The translations under genes and the position numbers were made by a program. From positions 14,032-78,031 of the forward strand of contig MGSS01000144.1 in assembly GCA_001798595.1 (NCBI GenBank): DNA of 64,000 bases. The letters are read 5' to 3'. Of the stretch, positions 2,178 through 59,690 are shown in pieces. Position 1 is the first letter of the stretch. The number at the start of each line of letters is the position of its first letter. This DNA is from Deltaproteobacteria bacterium RIFCSPLOWO2_12_FULL_60_19 (GTDB lineage Bacteria; Desulfobacterota; Binatia; UBA9968). The notes beneath the pieces are model-generated. The model did no database searches and was not told the DNA's origin. It worked only from the letters and a program-made list of their open reading frames with translations.

Positions 2178-3766
2178 GCCAGCTCCTCCAGCGCCTCGGC
2201 GCGCATGGTTTCGACCGGAATCGTCAGCGTGAATTCGGCTCCTCCCGTCTCGCGGTTGGCCGCGCGCGCAGAGCCTCCATGAGATCGCACAAAGTTATCC
2301 ACGATCGCGAGTCCGAGCCCCGTGCCGCCCGGAGGGGCGTCGGACGCGCGGTAGAACTTCTCAAAGATCCGCCGCAAGTCCGTTTCCTTCACGCCCGGCC
2401 CCTCATCGAGAATCGCAAGCGTGAGCCGGTCTCCGTCTAAAGCAGCGCGGACGGTGATGGTTGTGCCGGGCCTGCTCCAAGAGGCGGCGTTGAGGAGAAG
2501 GTTATAAAGGCATTGTTCGATCAGAGCTTGATCGAGTCTGACCATCGGAAGATCGTGATCGGCTTCTACCGCGATCTCGTGCTCGGCGACTCCATCACCG
2601 GCCAAGTCTATGGCGGCCTGGACGAGCTCGGCCACATCGCACCAGTCCAGCTTCGGCTGGATGACGCCGGCTTCGATGCGGGTCATGGTCAGGAGGTTGT
2701 CGATGACCCGGCGCAACCGTCGAACCGCGGATTGCACTTCCCGCAGCGTGGCGCGTTTTTCTTCGTCTCCGCCGAGCTGCCTCCCTAAAGCATCGATGCC
2801 GGCCTGCACGGCCGACAGGGGAGTCTTGAGTTCATGCGAGACGCTGTCGAGCAGCGCGCGTCTTAACCGCTCGGAGGCTTCGAGTACCTCGGCGCGTTTC
2901 ACGGCTTCAACCACATGATCTTTTTCCAGAATCAAGCCGATCAGTACCGCGAACGCTTCAAGGAGTTCTGTTTCGCCGCGATCGAGCGATTTTCCGGGAG
3001 CTCGACGAACGCACAACACGCCCATGACGGCGGTACGGCCCTGCAAAGGCAAACACCGGGCGCTCGAATCCCCGCGCGCTCCGATGAATCCGTCCGCCTG
3101 CGACGGATGATCGAAGGCCCATAGGGCAGCGGTCTTCTCCCTTTCAGAAAGAGTGAACGAGCTGGCCGGGTGCGCGAGCTCCGAGAGCGTGTGATCTTTT
3201 CGGCGCAGGAGGAGCGCGGCCTGCGCGCCCGAAACGGACGCGATCAAGCTCACGGCCGCACCGAGTCCGGTTTCCAGGTCCGTCGCAAAGGCCGCCTGAT
3301 GCGCCAGCTCATACAAGGCCGCGGTCCGCCGTTCGCGACGCCGCTCCGCCATTTCACTTGAGCGCAGGCGGCTGGCGAGGTGGCCCATCGCCATCGCGAC
3401 GACGAAGAACGTGGCGAACATCATCGCATCCTCAAGTCTGTCTATGTAAAAGGTGAAGTGAGGCGGAATGAACAGGAAATTCCAGACCAGGGCGCTGATC
3501 GCGGCCAGGATCAACACCGGGGCCCGTCCGAGCTTCAGAGCCGCAGCGACGATTAACAGCAGATAAAGCAGCGCGATCGATAGGTAGCCGGTGAAGGGCT
3601 CAAGGAGCAGGGACGCGACTGTCACCAAAACGACGAGAACTCCCGCCAGGGCGACCTGGTGAATAAAAGAAGCGCCGTTCAATCTTTCAACAGGCCGGTC
3701 CCTTCGGGTATCCTCGCGGGACTTGTCGGGCCGGGCCTCCGGGCTCGGCTGCGCGCCGTCCGCCAT
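2174..3766 (-). CDS. kdpD: KdpD-like sensor histidine kinase, C-terminal half only (4-TM + GAF + HisKA + HATPase)
   Basis: 530 aa. The 4-TM segment resembles the KdpD membrane domain. It is followed by SHELKTPL (H-box) and a DxGxG ATPase motif. The N-terminal KdpD/Usp sensor domains are missing from this polypeptide. Confidence 0.75.
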   Translation of the reverse strand: MADGAQPSPEARPDKSREDTRRDRPVERLNGASFIHQVALAGVLVVLVTVASLLLEPFTGYLSIALLYLLLIVAAALKLGRAPVLILAAISALVWNFLFIPPHFTFYIDRLEDAMMFATFFVVAMAMGHLASRLRSSEMAERRRERRTAALYELAHQAAFATDLETGLGAAVSLIASVSGAQAALLLRRKDHTLSELAHPASSFTLSEREKTAALWAFDHPSQADGFIGARGDSSARCLPLQGRTAVMGVLCVRRAPGKSLDRGETELLEAFAVLIGLILEKDHVVEAVKRAEVLEASERLRRALLDSVSHELKTPLSAVQAGIDALGRQLGGDEEKRATLREVQSAVRRLRRVIDNLLTMTRIEAGVIQPKLDWCDVAELVQAAIDLAGDGVAEHEIAVEADHDLPMVRLDQALIEQCLYNLLLNAASWSRPGTTITVRAALDGDRLTLAILDEGPGVKETDLRRIFEKFYRASDAPPGGTGLGLAIVDNFVRSHGGSARAANRETGGAEFTLTIPVETMRAEALEELA

Positions 3767-3770
3767 AAAA

Positions 3771-5825
3771 TCATTCTAACTTCCGCTTTTCGGGATTGCT
3801 ACCGCTCGGCGCGCGCGCCGTAGGCGGAATGAAAACGCGAATCGGCAGAATCATCATTTCTAAGCCTTCGAATTGAAGCCGCTGCTCCAGCGTGAAGGGC
3901 GTATGGTTGTGAAGCAAGCGGGTAAGAAAATTCTCCCTTTCAAAAACCAGCTTCCCGGCAAAAAAGACCGGCCTGGAGCAATCTCCGGCCACAGACCCGC
4001 ACAATTTCTCCAACTCTTCGATGAGGTCGATCCCTAGCGAATAACGATACTCCGCGTACCAGCCCAGGCAGTTGGCAAATTCCACGAAGCTTTTAAGATC
4101 CTCTTCCTTCGATCCACGCAAGTTGTCGATCTCGCTAAGTCCCTTGAATCGTCCGGAGTCGATTAGTCCAATCGAGACAAAGACGACGTTCTTGAAATGG
4201 TTCGGAAACAGCCGGGCAATGCTGAGCAGGGAATGAACTGCGAGCCCGTCGAAGTCCCTGACGATGAGGACGGCGGTGGGGGCATGCGGCTGCTTAGCCG
4301 GCACCGGATGTTTTAGGTCCGGCCGAAACGGGATATTGATCAGCGTTTCATCAAGGCTCTTCAGCGCCCGCTGCACCTGATCGTAATGCGCCCGGACTAT
4401 ATAGCAGAGAAGAATGAAGCCTGACGTCACCAGGAGCGTGACCCATCCTCCCTCGGCGAACTTGATGATTATCGTGACGATCAGAATAGTCGCCGTGAAC
4501 AACAAACCGAAACCATTCACCAAAAGTTTGCGCCGCCAAAGCTTCTCGGTTTTTCTTGATGCCCACCAATGGCGGCACATGCCCAGCTGAGAAAGGGTGA
4601 AGGTCAGAAAGACATTGATGCTATACATGACGACCAGCAGCCTTACGTCGCCGCCGGTATAAAGGAGAAACGCGACCGAGGCCAGACCCATGAACCAGAC
4701 GCCGTATTGCGCGACCAGGTGGTCGCTTAGATGGGAGAAGCGATGGGGAACCCACGAATCTACCGCCATGTTGGAAAGCACCCTTGGACCGTCGATAAAT
4801 CCGGCTTGCGCGGCGACGAGGAGGATGGTCGCCTCGGTGACCAGCGTTACGATCACCAGAGCGTACGCTGAGTCCGGCGAAAAGAAGTTCCCGTAGACTG
4901 TCGCGAAAAGACTGGCGTTCAAAGTTTTACCCGACTCATGGGAAACCCGGTTCAACAAGTAACAAACCAGAAGGCCGCTCGCCGTGAAGGCGAGGGACAC
5001 GGCCATGTAACGCATCGTTCTTTTCCCCGTCTCGACTCTGGGTTCGCGCAGGGCCTGAAGGCCGTTGCTGACCGCCTCGATGCCCGTGTAGGTGCCGCCG
5101 CCGAGACTATAGGCATGAAGAACGATAAAAACCGTCGTCCATAATCCCAGGGCTTGTATGTCTCCGAGCGTCTTCTGATAGGTGGCGGACGCGAGCGCGG
5201 GAATGTCCGCGGCCTTCGGGCCGACCCCCAGGCTGATCGCGAAAATGTGCGCGACGACAAAAAGGATAAAAATCGGCAGCAGAAAAAGAACCGATTCCTT
5301 GGTGCCGCGTAGATTCAGGTAGAGAAGCAGAAAAATCAAGCAAAATTCGACCGCCAGCTTTGTCCCGTGGATGGAAGCGGGCAGGAAGCTGAATATCTGG
5401 TCGCCGGCGCTGGCGACGGAGATAGTGATCGTCAGCATATAATCCACAATCAGGGCGGAGCCTGAGACCAGACCGACCTTTGGCCCCAAAAGTTTTGTCG
5501 CGACCAGATAGCCGCCGCCGCCCGTGGGGAACAGCTCGATGATGTGGCTGTAGCTCGCCGATATGACAAAGACGGTCAAGGCCATGAGAATCGCTAACGG
5601 AAGCGCGAGGAAAAAATGCTCTCCCAGGGCGAGGTACGCCTCCTCCGGCCCATACGCGGATGAGCTAAGACCGTCCGCGCCGAGACCGACCCACGCCAGA
5701 AAGGCGATGAGCGAGATCTGGTGGAAGACCTTCGGGTCCAGTGGATCTTTGGGCTTGCCGAACAATAGTGTCTTGAGGGATGGGCGCTCCGTTGCGCGCA
5801 ACGCATTTCCCGCTTTCACCCCCAC
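3771..5825 (-). CDS. APC-superfamily permease (12 TM) fused to a C-terminal cytoplasmic USP-like domain; candidate KimA-like K+ importer
   Basis: 684 aa. N-terminal ~450 aa has the APC-family TM pattern (LFPTGGGGYLVATKLLGPKVGLVSGSALIVDYMLTITISVASAGDQ). C-terminal ~220 aa is a soluble alpha/beta region (TAVLIVRDFDGLAVHSLLSIARLF...VVFVSIG). It lies directly upstream of kdpD-C/kdpE on the same strand. Confidence 0.55.
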   Translation of the reverse strand: MGVKAGNALRATERPSLKTLLFGKPKDPLDPKVFHQISLIAFLAWVGLGADGLSSSAYGPEEAYLALGEHFFLALPLAILMALTVFVISASYSHIIELFPTGGGGYLVATKLLGPKVGLVSGSALIVDYMLTITISVASAGDQIFSFLPASIHGTKLAVEFCLIFLLLYLNLRGTKESVLFLLPIFILFVVAHIFAISLGVGPKAADIPALASATYQKTLGDIQALGLWTTVFIVLHAYSLGGGTYTGIEAVSNGLQALREPRVETGKRTMRYMAVSLAFTASGLLVCYLLNRVSHESGKTLNASLFATVYGNFFSPDSAYALVIVTLVTEATILLVAAQAGFIDGPRVLSNMAVDSWVPHRFSHLSDHLVAQYGVWFMGLASVAFLLYTGGDVRLLVVMYSINVFLTFTLSQLGMCRHWWASRKTEKLWRRKLLVNGFGLLFTATILIVTIIIKFAEGGWVTLLVTSGFILLCYIVRAHYDQVQRALKSLDETLINIPFRPDLKHPVPAKQPHAPTAVLIVRDFDGLAVHSLLSIARLFPNHFKNVVFVSIGLIDSGRFKGLSEIDNLRGSKEEDLKSFVEFANCLGWYAEYRYSLGIDLIEELEKLCGSVAGDCSRPVFFAGKLVFERENFLTRLLHNHTPFTLEQRLQFEGLEMMILPIRVFIPPTARAPSGSNPEKRKLE

Positions 5826-26587: not shown

Positions 26588-27712
26588 CTACGGCTTCTTC
26601 AGCACCTCGTCGATCACTTTAAACGCCCCTTGGAGTTCTCTGAACTCAGGACGATAAACGGACATGAATCTGTCGCCCGGCTTGGGCTTGTAAGGCTCGA
26701 CTGTAGGATCCGGAGGGACATCGTCCCTTAAGCTGAACACGGGATCGATGCGCAAAAAATGCTTCTGGAAATGAGTCTGGCCTTCGCGGGAAAGAAGCCA
26801 GTTGACGAGTACCTTCGTCGCGCGGGGATGGGGGAGCTGGCTCAGGATGCTGAGCGACCCCTGAGTGGCGCGCATATAGAGCCCTTCCTTGAACGCCCGC
26901 GGCTCGAAGCGGGCCAAAGGCAGCCCTTGGGTCATGCCTGCCTGAACGTCGCTGGCGGACGGCGCCAGGGCGATGGCGAACCTGCCTGCGGCGAGCCAGT
27001 CGACAATCTGGCGGCCGTCTCGTGACAGCGTGATGTCCATCTCCCCGAAGAGCCGTCTCAAGAACTTGCCGCCCAGCTCCGGATGGTAGTACGCAAACTG
27101 AAGCAGTCCGCTGGGAAACCCCGCCAGCTTGGGATCCATCGAAACGATTTTCCCTTTCCACGCGGGCTTAAGCAGATCCCAATAGGAGCTGAACTCCTTC
27201 GCGTTCACGAGCGTAGTGTTGTAAGCCATATCCGAGCGGACCACTCCCTCAAAGACGAAGATGTACTTGCCCTCAGGATCGGCGTAGTGATGTTGCTTCC
27301 CGAACCAGTTTGCCTGGTCTTTAACCTCCGGCAAGCTCATGAAAGCCTGAGTCGGCTCCAGAATCTTGGCCGGGTAGAGAACGTCCATGGGAGTTCCCGA
27401 TGAGCCGAGATATATGTCGGCGAGGTGTTTGCCGGCTCTCCTTTCCGCCATGATCCTCGAGATCAGCTCGCCTCCTCGTCCTGTCACCGACACGACCTTG
27501 ATCGCGGGGTAACGCTTGGAGAACTCGGCGAAGAGCTTATCGAACGGGCCCCGGGTGTGGTAGATGGTGACCTGCCCTTCTCTTTTGGCCGCCTCGACAG
27601 TCTCCTCCCATTCCGCTTGCCATGCCTGGCTGGCCTCGCCGGCATGCGCAAAGGTCAGCCAGGCGAAAAAAAACAATCCGCAAATCAACGCTACGCAGCC
27701 TGGAGATCTCAT
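26588..27712 (-). CDS. Orphan periplasmic solute-binding protein (family 1, Fe3+/AfuA-like)
   Basis: The start is set at MRSPGCVALICGLFFFAWLTFAHA (signal peptide). It is a paralogue of the gene at 29213-30259, sharing a QRAGK(H/Y)LAD(I/V) motif. Confidence 0.7.
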   Translation of the reverse strand: MRSPGCVALICGLFFFAWLTFAHAGEASQAWQAEWEETVEAAKREGQVTIYHTRGPFDKLFAEFSKRYPAIKVVSVTGRGGELISRIMAERRAGKHLADIYLGSSGTPMDVLYPAKILEPTQAFMSLPEVKDQANWFGKQHHYADPEGKYIFVFEGVVRSDMAYNTTLVNAKEFSSYWDLLKPAWKGKIVSMDPKLAGFPSGLLQFAYYHPELGGKFLRRLFGEMDITLSRDGRQIVDWLAAGRFAIALAPSASDVQAGMTQGLPLARFEPRAFKEGLYMRATQGSLSILSQLPHPRATKVLVNWLLSREGQTHFQKHFLRIDPVFSLRDDVPPDPTVEPYKPKPGDRFMSVYRPEFRELQGAFKVIDEVLKKP

Positions 27713-27741: not shown

Positions 27742-28813
27742 CGTAGGGGGTCAGACATTTAATTATTTATTTTCTTCGTCTTGCGTTCCTCAGACCCTCT
27801 GTCAAATCCTCCACGCTTTGTCTCAAACCAGCTTCTTTCGTCATTCGCTCTCTCAATCCCTTTAGGCCCAGGCTCAGGGAGACTTGGTCTCGGCCATATC
27901 GCTTGGCCACATCACTAAGCTTTATCCCTCCCAGTTCCTGCCCCAGGTAGGCTACAACCATCCTGCCAAACGATCCGCGACGGTCCTTGCTCTTGGAGCG
28001 CAGGAGCTCGGGGGATAGCCCGTAGCGACCACACGCCGCTTCCTCGATGTCCGCAAGGTCGATTCGGATTGCCTGAGACGGTTCCTTTTCTATCCTACTA
28101 CTTACCCGCTCCACAAACTGCTCATCTCCCAAATACCGCTGCTCCTTAGTGGCGTAGAGATCCTCCCGATGTCCCTCAGATATGCCCTCCAATACAAATT
28201 CCTTGTATCTCCTTACCGCCTGCGAGCGCCTGGGTGAAAACTGGCTCAAAATCAAATCGGTCTCGATATCTACCTCAACCTTCAAGGGCTTACCCAAATA
28301 ACGACGGTGGCTGCTCCACGGATACTCTGATGGCTCCTTCACAAGCTTGGAGCGAACCGGATTCAAATGCAGATAGCGCACTAACTCCAGCAGATAGGAG
28401 TCCCGGTCGCAGAGAATCGCCTTGTAGCGGCCCTGAAAGAGGTGGCCCACCAGCCCGTATTTGCGGTTGAAATAGAGCGTGTAGCTCTGCTGCAGCCCCT
28501 GCATGACCTTGGCCAGCGGCGTCAGGCACGCTTCGACGAGCAAGTGAACGTGATTGGCCATTAACACGTAGGCGTACAGCCGAAAACGATACCGTTTCTG
28601 ATACCGGCTGAGCAACTCAAGGTAGCGGGCGCGGTCAAGATCGGAACGAAAGATCTTCTGGCGCTGATTGCCGCGAGCAATCACATGGTAGAGGCCGCCA
28701 GGGAAGTGGACTCGGGGCTTTCGTGCCATGGCTTGGGCCATACCACGAGGCAAGCGTACGATGCAAGAATTAAATAATTAAATGTCTGACCCCTACGATG
28801 TCTGACCCCTACG
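27742..28813. mobile_element. REPtron-like unit: a Y1 (HUH) transposase gene bracketed by ~27-bp inverted REP-like repeats starting GTAG, with a tandem 16-bp copy at the right end
   Basis: Left repeat CGTAGGGGGTCAGACATTTAATTATTTA (27742-27769). The right repeat (28771-28797) is its reverse complement with one G fewer. A second tandem ATGTCTGACCCCTACG copy lies at 28798-28813. Confidence 0.6.
27767..28753 (-). CDS. IS200-like/REP-associated tyrosine (Y1) transposase with C-terminal HTH extension
   Basis: HUH motif ANHVHLL, and catalytic Tyr region GRYKAILCDRDSYLLELVRYLHLNP. It is 328 aa and paralogous to 31822-32682. Confidence 0.8.
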   Translation of the reverse strand: MPRGMAQAMARKPRVHFPGGLYHVIARGNQRQKIFRSDLDRARYLELLSRYQKRYRFRLYAYVLMANHVHLLVEACLTPLAKVMQGLQQSYTLYFNRKYGLVGHLFQGRYKAILCDRDSYLLELVRYLHLNPVRSKLVKEPSEYPWSSHRRYLGKPLKVEVDIETDLILSQFSPRRSQAVRRYKEFVLEGISEGHREDLYATKEQRYLGDEQFVERVSSRIEKEPSQAIRIDLADIEEAACGRYGLSPELLRSKSKDRRGSFGRMVVAYLGQELGGIKLSDVAKRYGRDQVSLSLGLKGLRERMTKEAGLRQSVEDLTEGLRNARRRK

Positions 28814-29193
28814 ACGCGATCCTGCCGGTGATGGTCAACACTTATTATCCGCCGGCGCCTTCGGCCACAAGGTGTGCGCAGTTCGGCAAGGCCGTGGCCG
28901 CCGCAATCCGTGCTTTCCCCCAATCGCGGCGCGTCGTCGTCGGCTCGGGCGGACTCAGTCACACGAAGATCGACGAGGGACTGGATGCCGATCTGATCAG
29001 GGCGCTCACGAAAAACGATCAGAAGTTTCTTCAGACGATGGAATCTTCGGCCCTGGTGGAAGGCACCTCGGAGATCCGCAACTGGATCGTGACCGCGGCG
29101 GCGGCCGACCGGCCCGCGACGATCGTCGATTACCCGCCGCTTTACCGGACGCCGAACGGCGTCGGCTGCGCCATGGGATTCGCGTCCTGGTAG
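28814..29193 (+). pseudogene. 3' fragment of a LigB-type (class III) extradiol ring-cleavage dioxygenase gene, truncated at the repeat boundary
   Basis: The ORF body (AILPVMVNTYYPPAPS...SGGLSHT...) corresponds to the middle and C-terminal part of LigB-family enzymes. Its first five codons (MSDPY) are supplied by the tandem REP copy. No N-terminal half is present on either side. Confidence 0.5.
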
Positions 29194-29212
29194 TAGGGGA
29201 AAGGCAGTCGGA

Positions 29213-30259
29213 TCAACGACCGCTTAGAAAAATTTCCCTGAATTCCTGGCTATACCGGTCGAATTTTTCCGACATTTCGGGACTGATGACCACGATCTTA
29301 AGCTTGGCCGGGTCGAGCTTGGGACTTTTCGGTTTGATACCCGTCCGAGCGGGAACACGGTTCATAGTAACGAGCAGCTTCTGCGCTTCTTCGGAGAGAA
29401 AGAAATCGATAAAAAGCTTAGCGGCGTTGGGATGGGGCGCCTTGGAAAGCAGGTACAATCCCACAAGCGAAGTCGCGATCGGGTCCACACTGCTTTCCCA
29501 GTCGATGGGCGCTTTCTTATCGTTCTTGAGAGTCTCGACGGTGGCGGCCAGCACGACACCCGCCGCCACTTCCCCGGCGGCGGTAAACTCCGAAATCAGA
29601 CCGTAGCTTCCCTTGATCATACGCGGGTTTTGCGCGGCCAGTTTGCGCATGAAGCTGCGGCCTTTTTCCTCCCCCATGTAATCGATCATCGTTCCGAACC
29701 ATCGGACGGTATCGTCCTTTATGCCAATAAGCTGGCCTTTCCAGCGCGGATGCAAAAGATCGTCGTAGGCCTTGGGCGCATCGACGGGTTTCACCATTCG
29801 GGTGTTATACGCGATCACGTAGAAATTGGGATAATTTCCGACCCACAACCCGTTGGGATCTTTGAACTCCGGCGGAATGAACCTGGCTTCGGGAGACCGG
29901 TAGGGCTCGAAAAAACCTTTTTTTTGGAAGAAATAGGTTTCCACAATGTTCGACTCGATTACGTCGGCCAGATACTTCCCCGCACGCTGTTCAGACGCCA
30001 GGCGGTTGAGCAGACCTTGACTTCCAGCGCGGTAGAAGTCCACCTTTAAAAACGGATATTTTTTTTCGAACGCGTCGACTATCTTTCTTCCGTCGGTTAC
30101 ATTCATCGTGCCGTACCAACCGACGCTTCCGTCCTTTTTCGCAGCTTCGATCAGCGATGCTTGCGGGCCGGCTTCCGCCCCATTTGCGCGCGCGGAGTAA
30201 CAGAAAATCGCGAGGAAAAGAGCCACCCCGAGCGTTCTACCTTTGCTTCCCGTCATCAC
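29213..30259 (-). CDS. Orphan periplasmic solute-binding protein (family 1, Fe3+/AfuA-like), paralogue of 26588-27712
   Basis: Has a signal peptide and QRAGKYLADV. No cognate permease or ATPase genes are adjacent. Confidence 0.7.
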   Translation of the reverse strand: MMTGSKGRTLGVALFLAIFCYSARANGAEAGPQASLIEAAKKDGSVGWYGTMNVTDGRKIVDAFEKKYPFLKVDFYRAGSQGLLNRLASEQRAGKYLADVIESNIVETYFFQKKGFFEPYRSPEARFIPPEFKDPNGLWVGNYPNFYVIAYNTRMVKPVDAPKAYDDLLHPRWKGQLIGIKDDTVRWFGTMIDYMGEEKGRSFMRKLAAQNPRMIKGSYGLISEFTAAGEVAAGVVLAATVETLKNDKKAPIDWESSVDPIATSLVGLYLLSKAPHPNAAKLFIDFFLSEEAQKLLVTMNRVPARTGIKPKSPKLDPAKLKIVVISPEMSEKFDRYSQEFREIFLSGR

Positions 30260-30290
30260 TTACCTATCCTTATGAAATAAAATTTATGGT

Positions 30291-31397
30291 TCAGGTATTT
30301 GTCGTTTGCGTCAGCCATTCGGTCGGGATTTGCTTACCGATCTTCTTTTGGACGGCAAGCTCATAGACTCTGGCCCCGACCGCCGCGAACTGCAGGCCCA
30401 AACCTTGCACGTTCATAAAGAAAGTGATCTGTGAGTCATCGATCCTGGTAGGCGATGACCCGGTCAGAATGTCTTCGAGAAGAGGTATCTTATCAATGTC
30501 CAAGCGGGAAAGGACATGGGATTCCCAGTCATATTCCGAGGCGACGTACGGATTGCCGTGAACGAGCTTGCCGAATTGCCCTTCGCCCGCGATATGCGTG
30601 CGGTACCGCTCTCTGGAATGGATTGCCATTACGTCGGGCCTGGATAGGGCATCACCGTCGACCTCGTAGGGCCCGATGGAACCGAAGTGGGTCCCTTGCC
30701 GTAGGTACTTGCCGCGAATAATCGGTTCCTTCGCGTTTGTCGCCGCCATGAGCAGATCCGCATCAAACAGTTCGACCGGATCATCGACGGCCCGCGTGTG
30801 GACGCCGGTTCTCTCGCTCATCCTTTCGGCGAATTCCTTCCGGTGAGCGGGATTAGGGCTGTGAATCATTATCTCCTCGAGCGGGAATATTGCGCAGAAC
30901 GCATCGATATGGGCGCTGGCTTGCCACCCCGATCCGAATAGCCCCATGCGCCGGGAGTCCTTGCGCGCCATGTATTTCGCCCCAATGGCACTGGTGGCGG
31001 CGACCCGGATCTTTTGAATATAGGAATCCGGAAAGATGGCGAGCGGCTCGCATGTTTCGAAGCTGAAAAGCTGGACTAGGCCAAGAAGCCTGCCGCCAGG
31101 CCCGCGCACATAATCCGCGCGTAACGAGCCGTACTCTCGTAGCCATTGCTGGATCGTGGCGCTACACCGCAGAGCCACTATTCCCCGCTTCGGGAGGATC
31201 CCTACCATTGTCTTAAATTCAAATTCTTTAAGTTGATTGTCTTTCGCGATAGGAACTTCGGTGTCCATGCGGAGCTGACTGATCGCTCTTCCGGCCGCCT
31301 GCTCTCGATAAGCGTCTTCTAGGACGTCAATACAGTCCTTAATGTCCAGAAGTTCTTCGACTTCCTCATTGCTGAGAATGAGTGTCATGCAAAGCAT
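30291..31397 (-). CDS. Ornithine cyclodeaminase/mu-crystallin family protein
   Basis: Rossmann motif GLFGSGWQASAH and an OCD-family N-terminal domain. The start is 31397 or 31388. Confidence 0.75.
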   Translation of the reverse strand: MLCMTLILSNEEVEELLDIKDCIDVLEDAYREQAAGRAISQLRMDTEVPIAKDNQLKEFEFKTMVGILPKRGIVALRCSATIQQWLREYGSLRADYVRGPGGRLLGLVQLFSFETCEPLAIFPDSYIQKIRVAATSAIGAKYMARKDSRRMGLFGSGWQASAHIDAFCAIFPLEEIMIHSPNPAHRKEFAERMSERTGVHTRAVDDPVELFDADLLMAATNAKEPIIRGKYLRQGTHFGSIGPYEVDGDALSRPDVMAIHSRERYRTHIAGEGQFGKLVHGNPYVASEYDWESHVLSRLDIDKIPLLEDILTGSSPTRIDDSQITFFMNVQGLGLQFAAVGARVYELAVQKKIGKQIPTEWLTQTTNT

Positions 31398-31816
31398 CTC
31401 CTCCCTGCAGCGGCGCGCTGGGATTTATCCCGACGCTGTCCATAAGCTCAACTTGAATGCTTTGTACCTCAAGCAGAAATGAATGTCTAGTTCGGCGATC
31501 TGCCGATGCTTCGTTGCTATGAAGTCGAACGGCTCCAGTCCGCTGATAGGCGGAGCGCGAGCGACGCCTAGCGGCGGGAGTCTCCATCCCGCGCCGCTAC
31601 AAGCGGATGGGCTTTGCCCAAGCGAGCGACTCTTCCACTGAGCCAAACTGTTTCAATCTTCCTGCTTTCGCTTCAAACATCTCAGTAATACCAGGGATCG
31701 CGACCGATTCGCCATTCATTTTGCCACTGATCAGCAGCTTGGGCTTGTGCGTTGCCGAGCGCCGTATTGTCTCGTTTAAATGGAAGAGAGTCGGGACAAC
31801 CTTGTCATATTGCTTT

Positions 31817-32737
31817 AGGGGTCAGGTCTTGCTTCTTGTATCAGGCCTGTTTGCCAACCGGCTTACGGTAGCGTAGTGCAGGTCCAGAACATCCGCGACG
31901 TCACTCTGGCTGTACCCGTAACGATGCACCGCACGGACAACCAGGGCGTCTCGCCTGGCCTTGGTTAGCTTCCCTTCAAACAGGCTCTTGAGTGTCGGCC
32001 GGCTTAAGTATCTCTGGCTCCTAGGAATCTCTGTGACGGCCTCGTAACCTTTTACATACCCCCTGAGCCTCTCTACAAAGTCCTCTTCCCCCAACAATAC
32101 CTGGGCTTGCATCTTCTCCCAGATCGACGGCCGATCGATCCCTTCTCTGACAAATCGACGGTAGTGTCTAGCGGCCGAGTATCTTCTCTTACCAAACTGA
32201 CTCAACACCCAATCGACGGAGAGCCACGGGAGGTGCTTTTCCAGCCCTGCTGTAGCCCCGTAACTGCTCCACTTCCATTGCTCGACTCTCTTTACGGCCT
32301 TGGCCCTGACGGGGTTTAGCGCCACGTAGCGACAGACTTCCAAAAGGTGGCTGTCTTTTTGTATCAGCACGGCCTTGTAGCGGCCTTGAAACAGATGCCC
32401 TACCGTTCGGTGGCGTCGATTATAGAGTTGGGTGTAGACGCCGTTGAGCTGGCGCATCCCCTTGGAGAGATTAGCCTCCGGTGTTTCAATCACCAGGTGA
32501 TAGTGGTTATCCATCAGACAGTAGGCGTGGCAGAGCCAGTTAAAGCGGTTGACGACCTTGCCCAGGACCTCCAGGAAGGCTTTGCGGTCCCCATCGTCAT
32601 CGAAGATGTCCTCTCGGGCGTTGCCCCGGGAGGTCACATGGTAGACCGCACCGTCAAATTCCACTCGGAGAGGACGAGCCATGATTCACGGAACTATCAA
32701 GATAAGCCATCGATAGCAAGAAACAAGACCTGACCCC
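31817..32737. mobile_element. Second REPtron-like unit: Y1 transposase gene bracketed by 21-bp inverted repeats GGGGTCAGGTCTTG(C/T)TTCTTG
   Basis: The left repeat (31817-31837) and right repeat (32717-32737, reverse complement) have 1 mismatch. They share the GGGGTCAG core with the first unit. Confidence 0.55.
31822..32682 (-). CDS. IS200-like/REP-associated tyrosine (Y1) transposase paralogue
   Basis: HUH motif DNHYHLV and catalytic Tyr region GRYKAVLIQKDSHLLEVCRYVALNP. It is 286 aa. Confidence 0.8.
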   Translation of the reverse strand: MARPLRVEFDGAVYHVTSRGNAREDIFDDDGDRKAFLEVLGKVVNRFNWLCHAYCLMDNHYHLVIETPEANLSKGMRQLNGVYTQLYNRRHRTVGHLFQGRYKAVLIQKDSHLLEVCRYVALNPVRAKAVKRVEQWKWSSYGATAGLEKHLPWLSVDWVLSQFGKRRYSAARHYRRFVREGIDRPSIWEKMQAQVLLGEEDFVERLRGYVKGYEAVTEIPRSQRYLSRPTLKSLFEGKLTKARRDALVVRAVHRYGYSQSDVADVLDLHYATVSRLANRPDTRSKT

Positions 32738-32838: not shown

Positions 32839-34983
32839 CTACGGCAGCGTTGAGTTGTAGAGCTGCCCGTCATCAACGGCAGAGCTACCCGGTTTCATGC
32901 TCTTCGGCACACTCACCTCGACCGATCCGGCGCAGCTTCCGCCCTGGCCGTCGTCTGCCGTGAAGCCAACGCGATAGACCCGGCCGTTGCTATTGCCGGA
33001 GCGCTCCGCCCTGAGCAGCACGGTGCTTCCCTGGATTACTGCATCCGGGCTGGTGTCGCCGTCGCCCAGACCGTTCACCCGCTCATCCTGGGTTACGCCT
33101 GTTATGGTGATTGTCACGCCGTCATTGTTCGGATCGCTGACGCCTACGATCCCGACCGACACCAGCTTGTGGTTCGGCGGCCAGAGCCGCGATGGACTAG
33201 CCTGCGCAAGTTGGCAGATCGGAGGATCATTGACGTTCTGAACGGTAATGCTGACCCACTCATCGGGCTCGCCAGCCGCAGGATTGTTGCTCAACTGACC
33301 GTCGCTTACGCTAAGTTTAAACACCAGCGTATCCCCGCCGGGTCCCACCGGAGGCGCTGTGAAGCTAGGCGTCGCTGTGTCAGCCCCAGTTAGAGTCACC
33401 AGTGTCCCGCCGGTTTGTACCCAGCTGTATGTAATCGCATCCCCGTCCGGGTCGCTGCTGGCGGTACCATTCAGTGTCACCAGCGCCCCTTCGTCCTTCG
33501 TCTGGTCAGCACCGGCGTTAGCGACGGGCGCATGGTTTACCTGCTCGACGGTTACCTGGACCGTATCCGTGTCGAAGAGATAGCCGTCGGAGACAGTCAA
33601 CTCGAAGGTCAAAATCTCGAACCCGCCGACACCGCCGGGAATGAGCGGGGCCGTGAAGCTAGGCGTTGCAGTGTCGGGCCCAGTGAGAGTTACCAGCGTC
33701 CCGCCGGTTTGCACCCAGCTGTACGTGATAGCATCGAGATCCGGGTCGAAGCTGGCGCTGCCGTCGAGCATTACCGGCGCATCCTCGTTGACCGTTTGGT
33801 CACCGCCGGCATGCGCCTCCGGCGCGAGATTCACATTACCGACGGGGATTCCGTTCGCATCAGTCAGCACCCAGACGTCGTTCAGGGCGAAGAACTCAGC
33901 TCCAGAGCAACCGCCGCTGCAGCTGCGTCCTGCGAACATGACCATCCGGTTCGTCGCCGGGTTATAGACGGCGGTAGGGGAGCTTCGCCCGCGGGGTGGC
34001 CCGCCGGTGGGAAAAAGCTGCGTCCAATTTGGGGTACCTCCTAGTCCGTTGGCAACCTCAAGGACCCACACATCGTTAAGATTGCCCGCAACGTTTCGGT
34101 CGCCACCGAAGACCGTCATCCGGTTCGTCGCCTGGTCGTAAACCGCCGTGTGCATCGAGCGCGAGGGAGGGGGCCCACCGGTGGGGAAAAGCTGGGTCCA
34201 GGTGGGCGACCCCAATCCGTTGGCGTTCTGCAACACCCAGACATCGTCGGACGGACACGGCCCCCCGTCTACGCACCCCGAAAACACGATCATCCTGTTG
34301 TTTGTCGCATCATAGACCGCTATGTGTTCCGACCTTGCAGACGGCGGCCCGCCGGTGGGGAAAAGCTGGGTCCAGGTGGGCGACCCCAATCCGTTGGCGT
34401 TCTGCAACACCCAGACAGCGTTACTGTTGGCGCTGCAAGCGTTGCTCCTGCCGCCGAAGACGACCATGCGGTTCATAGCGGCATCGTAGACGGCCGTGGG
34501 TCCTTGACGAAGGTTGGGTGGCCCACCGGTGGGGCTGAGTTGCGACCAATTGGGCGTTCCGCCTGTCCCATCGGCGTTGGTAAGTACCCAGACATCATTG
34601 ACCGCACCAAAACAAGAACCAATGTTGGGATCTCCGGCAAACACAATCATGCGGTTGTTCACCACATCGTACACAGCACTATGGTAGCCCCGGGCACTTG
34701 GTGGCCCGCCAGTGGGGAAAAGCTGCGTCCAGGTGGGCGTCCCTCCCAATCCGTCGGCATTGGTCAGCACCCAGACATCGTTGAACAGAGGGTGCCCTGT
34801 AATCACTCCAGGGCCATTCATTCCCCCGAACACGATCATACGGTTATTGGTCGAGTTGAAGACCGCGGTATGGAGAACCCTTACGCCTGGTGGGCCGCCG
34901 ATCGGGCTAAGCTGCGTCCATGTCTGCGCCGCCGCCTGGCCGACCAGGGCGAAGACGAGAAGAAGGATTACCCCCCCCCCCAA
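32839..34983 (-). CDS. Secreted multi-domain protein: N-terminal Kelch-type beta-propeller (6-7 blades) plus two C-terminal PKD/Ig-like domains
   Basis: Repeated TW(T/S)QL..GGPP..R..H.AVYD...NRMIVFGG blades, then a duplicated D.DGD.ITYSWVQTGGTLVTLTG module. In the sequence as given, the TTG start sits inside a G11 tract. An in-frame ATG plus signal peptide is reached only with a G10 tract (see findings). Confidence 0.7.
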   Translation of the reverse strand: MGGGVILLLVFALVGQAAAQTWTQLSPIGGPPGVRVLHTAVFNSTNNRMIVFGGMNGPGVITGHPLFNDVWVLTNADGLGGTPTWTQLFPTGGPPSARGYHSAVYDVVNNRMIVFAGDPNIGSCFGAVNDVWVLTNADGTGGTPNWSQLSPTGGPPNLRQGPTAVYDAAMNRMVVFGGRSNACSANSNAVWVLQNANGLGSPTWTQLFPTGGPPSARSEHIAVYDATNNRMIVFSGCVDGGPCPSDDVWVLQNANGLGSPTWTQLFPTGGPPPSRSMHTAVYDQATNRMTVFGGDRNVAGNLNDVWVLEVANGLGGTPNWTQLFPTGGPPRGRSSPTAVYNPATNRMVMFAGRSCSGGCSGAEFFALNDVWVLTDANGIPVGNVNLAPEAHAGGDQTVNEDAPVMLDGSASFDPDLDAITYSWVQTGGTLVTLTGPDTATPSFTAPLIPGGVGGFEILTFELTVSDGYLFDTDTVQVTVEQVNHAPVANAGADQTKDEGALVTLNGTASSDPDGDAITYSWVQTGGTLVTLTGADTATPSFTAPPVGPGGDTLVFKLSVSDGQLSNNPAAGEPDEWVSITVQNVNDPPICQLAQASPSRLWPPNHKLVSVGIVGVSDPNNDGVTITITGVTQDERVNGLGDGDTSPDAVIQGSTVLLRAERSGNSNGRVYRVGFTADDGQGGSCAGSVEVSVPKSMKPGSSAVDDGQLYNSTLP
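34971..34981. repeat. Homopolymeric tract C11 (G11 on the coding strand) at the 5' end of the Kelch/PKD gene
   Basis: Direct reading: 11 consecutive C residues. Confidence 0.9.
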
Positions 34984-51277: not shown

Positions 51278-51533
51278 GCGTTACTCGTGTTGACACTGAC
51301 CCCGGCTGTCCAACCCGACAACAGTTAAATAGAGATTGTACCTTACTGTGAACTTGAGATATGCCCCTTGAGAACTGAAAGGCATGGCGAGTGCTTCCCG
51401 GCCGGCTGGCCGGCAGGACCGGACCAACCGTTGAAGTATGCGTCAGTCTGCCTACGGGGCTGCGCGGGCAGGGAACCTTTTGGCTCAGAAGAAGTTTCGT
51501 TGTTAGTACGACTATCCGATACATGGAGAAAAT

Positions 51534-59186: not shown

Positions 59187-59690
59187 TCCTGCAATCTGGG
59201 AAAAATATAGGTTGTCTTCGCTGGAATGCGCCCGGCCGGTGGCGATTCGATTTCCTGTTACGCATGGAAATTGGCAGCGGCTGGTGCGCGCTGCAGCGCA
59301 GCGTTGTCGGGTATCGGAAGCAATAGCAGGGGAAGAGAAGTAAAAGGGGAGGTGTTTGTCTTGAAGATCAACCAGAAGCTCTTTAGGGTCAGCACGCTAC
59401 CTTCTCTCCCTAAGGATCCCCGTCAATTCGAGCCGAGGCGCCCTCTAGTTGATTGGACGAAGGGGAGCAGCGCATCTTCAAAAGGGCGTCCACAGCCCCC
59501 ATTGAAACTCTATTCTTCCCCAATGTCAAGAAAATTCATCAGTCATCACCGTGCGCCGCCTCCTTTCAGAGAAGATAATCGGCCGATGCCGCGCTATCCT
59601 TTAAGCAAGCGATATGTTCACACGTTGAATTTCCGTATCCGTTGCGGACTTCGGTCGGCGGAAAACGGCAAAGCTTCGCGCGGATTTTGG

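Follow-up and report, generated by a model that had tools for sequence, protein, structure and literature searches.

What kind of element is formed by two Y1 (HUH) transposase genes, each enclosed between its own inverted repeats, that lie close together in the genome of an uncultured groundwater bacterium? The two units were found in a stretch of 64,000 nucleotides from Deltaproteobacteria bacterium RIFCSPLOWO2_12_FULL_60_19 (contig MGSS01000144.1, positions 14,032 to 78,031), which is called the window here and to which all positions without a locus name refer. An initial annotation, made from the sequence alone, had taken them for REPtron-like units, that is, for genes of REP-associated tyrosine transposases (RAYTs) flanked by inverted copies of repetitive extragenic palindromic (REP) sequences. 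Both units are securely identified here as TIRtrons, one-gene elements of about 1 kb bounded by repeats of 21–28 bp and encoding TIRYTs (TIR-associated tyrosine transposases), relatives of RAYT/TnpAREP that belong to TnpAY1 subclass 2.1. Taken as a whole, the locus is probably best explained by resident TIRtrons, the enzymes of which would act on their own termini by the putative nicking mechanism proposed below.

Two transposase genes between terminal inverted repeats

The two units are composed of the following features.

27742–27769, plus strand: gene-distal (3′) terminal inverted repeat of unit 1, CGTAGGGGGTCAGACATTTAATTATTTA; its inner end overlaps the stop codon of TIRYT-1
27767–28729, minus strand: TIRYT-1 gene, 320 amino acids from ATG (MARKPRV)
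28771–28797, minus strand: gene-proximal (5′) terminal inverted repeat of unit 1, with the minus-strand reading CGTAGGGGTCAGACATTTAATTATTTA
28798–28813, minus strand: the terminal 16-mer once more, as an outer "stutter" copy beyond the unit 1 repeat, with the minus-strand reading CGTAGGGGTCAGACAT
31818–31838, plus strand: gene-distal (3′) terminal inverted repeat of unit 2, GGGGTCAGGTCTTGCTTCTTG; it overlaps the last codons of TIRYT-2
31822–32682, minus strand: TIRYT-2 gene, 286 amino acids, a Y1/HUH domain followed by a short carboxy-terminal helix-turn-helix (weak HTH_23 match)
32717–32737, minus strand: gene-proximal (5′) terminal inverted repeat of unit 2, with the minus-strand reading GGGGTCAGGTCTTGTTTCTTG

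The near-perfect inverted repeats first reported for unit 1 are found as described, a single extra G being the sole difference between the two arms, and a repeat search extends the pair to 39 nt with 82% complementarity (27747–27785 and 28755–28793). At the gene-proximal end there are two tandem copies of the 16-mer ATGTCTGACCCCTACG (28782–28797 and 28798–28813), so that the extra copy noticed at the outset is also borne out. The arms of unit 2 are 21 nt long and 95% complementary. All four ends carry GGGGTCAG, which fits the published motif GGGGWSAS; it occurs six times in the window, five times at the two units, where 1.9 occurrences would be expected by chance. With this distribution, and with a similar arrangement in about 64 of 80 relatives, the core that had been pointed out as shared by the two units is a real and gene-specific feature.

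The open reading frame (ORF) of unit 1 (27767–28753, minus strand) contains the 328 codons originally given for it when read from the TTG at 28753. As the length of the frame this value stands; as the length of the protein it probably does not, an ATG being the likely true start: either the one at 28741, which is used by public gene calls and yields 324 amino acids, or the one at 28729, where alignment with relatives puts the start (MARKPRV, 320 amino acids). TIRYT-1 consists of an amino-terminal Y1/HUH domain, a linker and a domain resembling DnaA domain IV (approximately residues 225–318), which is predicted to bind DNA. As read from their sequences, both transposase genes are intact.

Domain composition and predicted structure of the proteins

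The Pfam profile Y1_Tnp matches the proteins of units 1 and 2 (proteins 1 and 2) with E-values of 3e-15 and 4e-15, respectively, and the two are 45% identical over their amino-terminal 210 residues (E 7e-57), in agreement with the description of protein 2 as a 286-residue paralogue. They score 73.7 and 86.4 bits with the NCBIfam model REP_Tyr_transpos (equivalog cut-off 80), against 21 and 19.7 bits with transpos_IS200 (cut-off 55). At the carboxy-terminus, protein 1 matches Bac_DnaA_C with 27.4 bits, below the Pfam cut-off of 31.5, while protein 2 gives a weak match to HTH_23 (E 2e-4). Searching the PDB with the sequence of protein 1 returned Mycobacterium tuberculosis DnaA domain IV for residues 225–318 and Escherichia coli TnpAREP (PDB entry 4ER8) for residues 6–149.

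An AlphaFold model of protein 1, built on 14 relatives, has a mean pLDDT of 80. A fold search with this model gives 4ER8 as the best match (E 2e-6), followed by the TnpA proteins of IS608 and ISDra2; together with the profile scores, this supports the earlier view that the proteins are RAYT-related Y1/HUH enzymes and not canonical IS200 TnpA. The HUH histidines, His60 and His62, are invariant among the 14 relatives, as is Tyr119, which is located in the motif RYLHLNP and aligns with the catalytic Tyr115 of 4ER8. The carboxy-terminal 95 residues of the model superpose onto DnaA domain IV at 1.4–1.6 Å with a TM-score of 0.88 (bound to its box in PDB entry 3PVP, TM-score 0.88 and r.m.s.d. 1.6 Å; PDB entry 1J1V, TM-score 0.88). 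Despite this likeness, the base-contacting DHTTV of DnaA reads RDQVSLS in protein 1, and the repeats of the units contain no DnaA box.

Terminal repeats across the family

A word-index search of a large protein collection gave more than 7,700 relatives among 8,000 scored candidates. For a survey of their loci, one genome per species was taken, giving 80 loci (L001–L080) with 35–50% protein identity from Nitrospirota, Thermodesulfobacteriota, Binatia, NC10/Methylomirabilota, Rokubacteria, Acidobacteriota, Chlamydiae, Clostridia, Zetaproteobacteria and Pseudoduganella. In about 64 of these, inverted repeats starting (T)GGGGTCAG stand on both sides of the gene, and contig ends cut most of the others. 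The same arrangement is present around the gene on plasmid pSPTER of a cultured organism, Sporomusa termitida.

Repeat statistics were obtained from 51 of the loci, anchored with a regular expression requiring GG[TA][CG]A. Their consensus is T|GGGGTCAGRCYTG (in context, aaT|GGGGTCAG(G/A)C(T/C)TG, with an AT-rich stretch after it that is specific to the element). The repeats are about 25–28 bp long, and the elements mostly measure 985–1130 bp, with outliers of 830 and 938 bp and three of 1133–1154 bp. What is conserved is the outer 8–13 bp, (T)GGGGTCAG(G/A)CYT, while the inner, AT-rich part differs between elements; the outer edge is sharp, information content being zero just beyond the T. The two arms of one element match at approximately 17 of 20 positions, the inner part co-varying with the element. 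The elements have no target-site duplication: in a search for direct matches of 2–10 bp, four of the 51 loci had one, each of 2 bp only, which is the chance level.

In a relative of unit 1 the gene is frameshifted and 78% identical at the nucleotide level, and yet the 31 nt of the 5′ repeat plus leader are identical; such retention at this level of divergence is a sign of constraint on the repeat, as far as sequence comparison can tell. This relative (L105, positions 2719–3888 of Ga0184634_10002270, also present as L106) has its gene spread over three reading frames, so that it is probably a pseudogene, and a 3′ repeat is not recognisable. At 130 nt beyond its 5′ end lies a repeat of the unit 2 type (GGGGTCAGGTCTTGC...), pointing inwards; ends of TIRtrons seem to cluster, as they do with the two units of the window.

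Neither a terminator nor a sigma-70 promoter consensus was found in the unit repeats of the window. With that, and because the repeats occur family-wide, in those same 64 or so loci, they are specific to TIRYT-type genes. Their reading as generic terminators, for which occurrence around unrelated genes would have spoken, was rejected: the repeats track this gene family.

The published kind

RAYT-like genes with long terminal inverted repeats (TIRs) that are unrelated to REPs, and many of which share GGGGWSAS, were named TIRYTs, and the units containing them TIRtrons, by Di Nocera et al. 2013 (BMC Genomics 14:522, PMC3733652). According to the same paper, several TIRYT genes can coexist in one genome, each differing in its TIRs, and TIR repeat families occur in a few genomes only, where they are moderately abundant. 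The window units correspond to this description in their RAYT-like Y1 gene, their non-REP terminal inverted repeats with GGGGWSAS and their similar distances between repeat and gene; likewise, several divergent genes are present per genome, each with its own TIRs and usually with no abundant TIR family. Nothing essential sets the window units apart, and they are new members of the kind from an uncultured groundwater bacterium. A term search of the paper led to no passage on tandem stutter copies with a fixed inner boundary or on a strain breakpoint at the end of a TIR.

Quentin 2018 (BMC Genomics 19:475, PMC6006769) assigned 20 of 26 TIRYTs to TnpAY1 subclass 2.1, reported no REPs near the genes of this subclass and left their function open. 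Within it, subgroup 2.1.2 is characterized by a carboxy-terminal Bac_DnaA_C domain or a shorter HTH_23/HTH_28 (PMC6006769). The window proteins share with this subgroup the HUH/Y1 core, a serine motif (WSS in our proteins) that follows the catalytic region, and the absence of REPs nearby. By domain architecture, on which the assignment is based, protein 1 is the long form with a Bac_DnaA_C-type carboxy-terminus and protein 2 the short form with an HTH_23-type one. The atypical, long subgroup proposed in the initial annotation therefore holds as to length and carboxy-terminal helix-turn-helix, although as a subgroup it had already been published.

The IS200/IS605 family, with the TnpA proteins of IS608 and ISDra2, has in common with the units the Y1 HUH fold and the lack of target-site duplication. 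It differs in having subterminal hairpins in place of terminal inverted repeats, asymmetric left and right ends, and both cuts on one strand; the sequence match of the window proteins to its TnpA is weak (about 20 bits).

Resident genes or mobile elements

Evidence from many samples indicates that these TIRtrons behave as resident, essentially single-copy genes and not as proliferating insertion sequences, while strain polymorphism, repeat constraint and stutter copies point to activity at their ends. The two-unit arrangement of the window is unchanged in 12 contigs from several samples. A relative, protein P0079, is present in identical form on 16 contigs from different samples, with the same two neighbour genes in the 10 places listed and six more collapsed as similar. 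A search for jumping copies, made with the exact sequences of P0079 and of the two window proteins, always met each of them in one context.

The family might alternatively be an actively proliferating, autonomous insertion sequence, a TIR-bearing Y1 element that transposes as a whole unit. Several observations would fit: the ends are sharply defined and without target duplication; several divergent copies are present per genome (in the window, and as L006/L016, L014/L036 and L060/L070); the taxonomic distribution is patchy; and many homologues lie on contigs of about 1.05–1.2 kb, approximately the size of one element. Flank polymorphism is also found exactly at the repeat end: a strain contig (L081) is 99.3% identical over unit 1 and the adjoining solute-binding-protein gene and diverges precisely at the terminus of the 5′ repeat. 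About a quarter of the 80 surveyed loci, furthermore, are within approximately 300 bp of a contig end; this hand count, made without a control gene set, suggests that assemblies break at TIRtrons, from strain heterogeneity or repeats. Against proliferation, the same element was never met in two contexts, P0079 and the window proteins keeping to a single one across many samples; copies that share a genome are paralogues of old divergence and differ in their repeats (45% protein identity for the pair in the window); and members of the family are very seldom met on plasmids (11 of 72,556 records) or viral contigs (2 loci). We regard this alternative as unlikely.

The REPtron reading, in which RAYT genes spread their flanking REP or REPIN sequences as GTAG-tagged, hairpin-forming miniature elements, is rated still lower, as distinctly improbable. 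Its model is the E. coli TnpAREP/RAYT gene with flanking REP/BIME sequences, reportedly described in 2010 (Nunvar) and 2012 (Ton-Hoang; Messing, said to be the origin of PDB entry 4ER8). The likeness is considerable: the proteins are RAYT-like, with TnpAREP as the nearest solved structure for the catalytic domain, the gene is single-copy between inverted copies of its presumed substrate, and CGTAGGGG begins both arms of unit 1. REPs, however, are GTAG-tagged hairpins present in hundreds, whereas the repeats of the units are non-palindromic, without a conserved GTAG and without a swarm of copies in the window. The proteins of the window are also about twice as long, with an extra domain that is predicted to bind double-stranded DNA.

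The label given to the units at first does not survive the following observations. Single arms have no hairpin potential: when the four ends were folded as DNA and compared with shuffled sequences, z-scores ranged from -0.2 to +1.7, with no excess of structure. GTAG, which had been taken for a REP tag, is confined to unit 1 and the strain L081; the reading is AATGGGGTCAG or ATCGGGGTCAG in contigs with the identical 23-nt repeat, so that elements with the repeat of unit 1 carry AATGGGG or ATCGGGG in its place, and the consensus of the family at this point is T|GGGGTCAG. No copies beyond chance were found in the window, where GGGGTCAG and GTAGGGGTCAGAC (with up to two mismatches) are present at the units and otherwise as chance-level matches. 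The two look-alikes that had been listed, at 51293–51307 and 59381–59392, are of this chance level, the former lying just past the end of a gene and having no partner. A metagenome scan found the unit 1 repeat in five contigs only, none of which is a second site in the same genome, and the reported lack of REPs near subclass 2.1 genes (PMC6006769) points in the same direction. In favour of repeat spreading there are the TIR families of moderate abundance that PMC3733652 reports for a few genomes, and a tandem pair of unit-1-type repeats without a TIRYT gene nearby in another metagenome, so that solo repeats of this family do occur in some genomes.

This pair is located at 2791–2813 of L104 and 94–150 of L107 (the overlapping contigs Ga0326597_10146297 and Ga0326597_10040606) and consists of two tandem repeats in the same orientation (AGAATGGGGTCAGACATTTAATTATTT, period 35), with no TIRYT gene within 2.8 kb on one side and 5.7 kb on the other. 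It sits downstream of an ORF of 608 amino acids, which, as a guess from reading its sequence, may encode an OLD-family ATPase/nuclease.

That the inverted repeats are nothing but operators for autoregulation by the helix-turn-helix, the HUH domain acting on other substrates and the element being immobile, is highly improbable: the position of the 5′ repeat 45–60 nt upstream of the start codon in most loci, the frequent TTGACA within its inner part and the stable, single context of the genes agree with it, but it leaves unexplained the equally conserved copy downstream of the gene, the highest conservation at the outermost edge, the stutter at both ends alike (17 and 16 ends) and the strain breakpoint exactly at the terminus, and the repeats of the window contain no sigma-70 consensus promoter.

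Stutter copies and a proposed nick site

The resident TIRtrons have one further property, which bears on how their enzymes might act. An extra GGTCA in the same orientation is found within 30 nt outside 21 of 103 repeat ends, compared with 2 of 103 inside and about 3–4% further out or on the other strand. These stutter copies, present at about 20% of ends, are repetitions of a unit made up of k nt of flank plus (T)GGGGTCA, and they are equally frequent at both ends of the element (17 versus 16 ends). Of the 14 tandem duplications that are clear, 12 have the inner limit of their periodicity at repeat position +7 to +9, with an outer boundary that varies from -2 to -11; under a null of uniform phase, the binomial tail for this clustering of the inner boundary is 3e-5. 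The unit-1-type repeat of L105 has the same stutter pattern. The fixed inner boundary, just after GGGGTCA, suggests a nick site, for which we put forward the position tentatively, at somewhat less than even chances.

HUH enzymes cut single-stranded DNA, remain attached to the 5′ phosphate and can reseal. In the proposed mechanism, the carboxy-terminal domain (DnaA-domain-IV-like in protein 1, a short helix-turn-helix in protein 2) would bind the element-specific inner part of both repeats as a duplex; it is most plausibly the reader of this part because the inner sequence co-varies with the element and the arms match at some 17 of 20 positions. Binding of the duplex would place the HUH/Tyr domain on the conserved terminus, the invariant sequence of which would be read by the catalytic domain. 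The latter would nick one strand just inside GGGGTCA, in 5′-...C^TGACCCC-3′, freeing a 3′-OH on the element side while the enzyme stays linked to the flank. This strand is preferred because a nick in the GGGGTCAG strand would duplicate the inner repeat, which is not seen. The inverted arrangement of the ends would put the nicks on opposite strands, unlike in IS200/IS605 and REP processing. Short outward extension by a polymerase from the 3′-OH of the element, followed by religation of the displaced, enzyme-linked strand, would give rise to the stutter copies, and transfer of the strand to other sites could result in rare transposition or in adjacent rearrangements, of which the truncation of a neighbouring LigB gene and the strain-specific flank of unit 1 may be examples. 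That stutter copies are scars left by the enzyme in this way, through a nick in the strand complementary to GGGGTCA^G, a short stretch of outward synthesis and resealing, is possible, and we hold it to be doubtful.

Several points weigh against this account. The stutter of the window itself ends at +12 and that of L075 at +11, and neither fits +7/8. The stutter statistics come from 14 clear cases in 51 loci, the anchoring of which already required GG[TA][CG]A. Protein 1 is under the curated cut-offs for both Bac_DnaA_C and REP_Tyr_transpos, and the inner repeat bears no resemblance to a DnaA box. The alternative flank of L081 was not found in the window, and unit 1 is no more than possibly involved in the LigB truncation. 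Binding, nicking, strand and polarity are all deduced for TIRYTs from sequence.

Implications

TIRYTs form a very large family spread over many phyla. The word TIRYT was met only in PMC3733652 and PMC6006769 in a full-text literature search, and no experimental study was found there. As members of a published kind, the two units add nothing categorically new, and for genes such as these the labels "IS200-like transposase" and "REP-associated transposase" are imprecise. The comparative data lead to three testable predictions: the position of the cut, the strand that is cut, and which domain reads which part of the repeat. If the proposal is correct, stutter scars would reveal, for the first time from sequence, where TIRYTs cleave and with what strand polarity; a Y1/HUH enzyme would free 3′-OH ends on opposite strands at two inverted ends; and TIRtron ends would be hot spots of local rearrangement, with the LigB truncation and the strain-specific flank as an example. 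The stutter copies and the nick site are the sole part that might repay further work.

Neighbouring genes and flanks

Two genes adjoin unit 1.

26588–27712, minus strand: solute-binding-protein gene, which follows immediately downstream of unit 1 with the same orientation and is a neighbour outside the element
28814–29193, plus strand: LigB-type extradiol dioxygenase gene, truncated at the amino-terminus and joined straight to the outer 16-mer

The left repeat of unit 1 is located 30–57 nt upstream of the ATG of the solute-binding-protein gene (27712), in keeping with its reported place in the promoter region. The truncated dioxygenase gene at the right end is also as reported: the amino-terminal half is missing, the Pfam profile LigB covering positions 132–210 of 269 only, and homology with a longer relative (85% identity) starts at residue 7, directly after the outer 16-mer. 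The fused ORF takes its ATG and its first five codons from this 16-mer (28798–28813). L081 has one 16-mer only, with a gene for a small membrane protein before it, and neither a second 16-mer nor the LigB fusion.

A homologue search with the LigB fragment gave no close relative with an uninterrupted locus. In the distant L108 (ENA ERZ25067264, a 2.3 Mb contig, positions 3474–4366) the LigB-type homologue is present as two overlapping ORFs of 177 and 121 amino acids, the first without a Pfam match, and LigB-type homologues of 121–125 amino acids are numerous on long contigs. A naturally split LigB-type enzyme may be common. Short Logan contigs ending at 28840–28843 were considered as evidence of a branch point and were dropped as uninterpretable.

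Units 1 and 2 have the same orientation and bracket a segment of 3 kb in a layout like that of a composite transposon (27742–32737). The segment contains the LigB fragment, a second solute-binding-protein gene (29213–30259) and a gene of the ornithine cyclodeaminase family (30291–31397), and it is not beside unit 1 in strain L081. The approximately 420 nt between the cyclodeaminase gene and unit 2 (31400–31817) hold no convincing gene. An open frame of 74 amino acids abuts unit 2 here (31600–31816, minus strand); it has no Pfam match and may be the remnant of a gene cut by unit 2, which would make it a second truncated neighbour. On its other side, unit 2 is adjoined by a gene for a large secreted protein of 714 amino acids with Kelch and PKD domains (32839–34983). 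Secondary BLAST hits in the Kelch-repeat region of this gene (34169–34421) correspond to a 79-nt segment duplicated at 96% identity, the copies being 174 nt apart.

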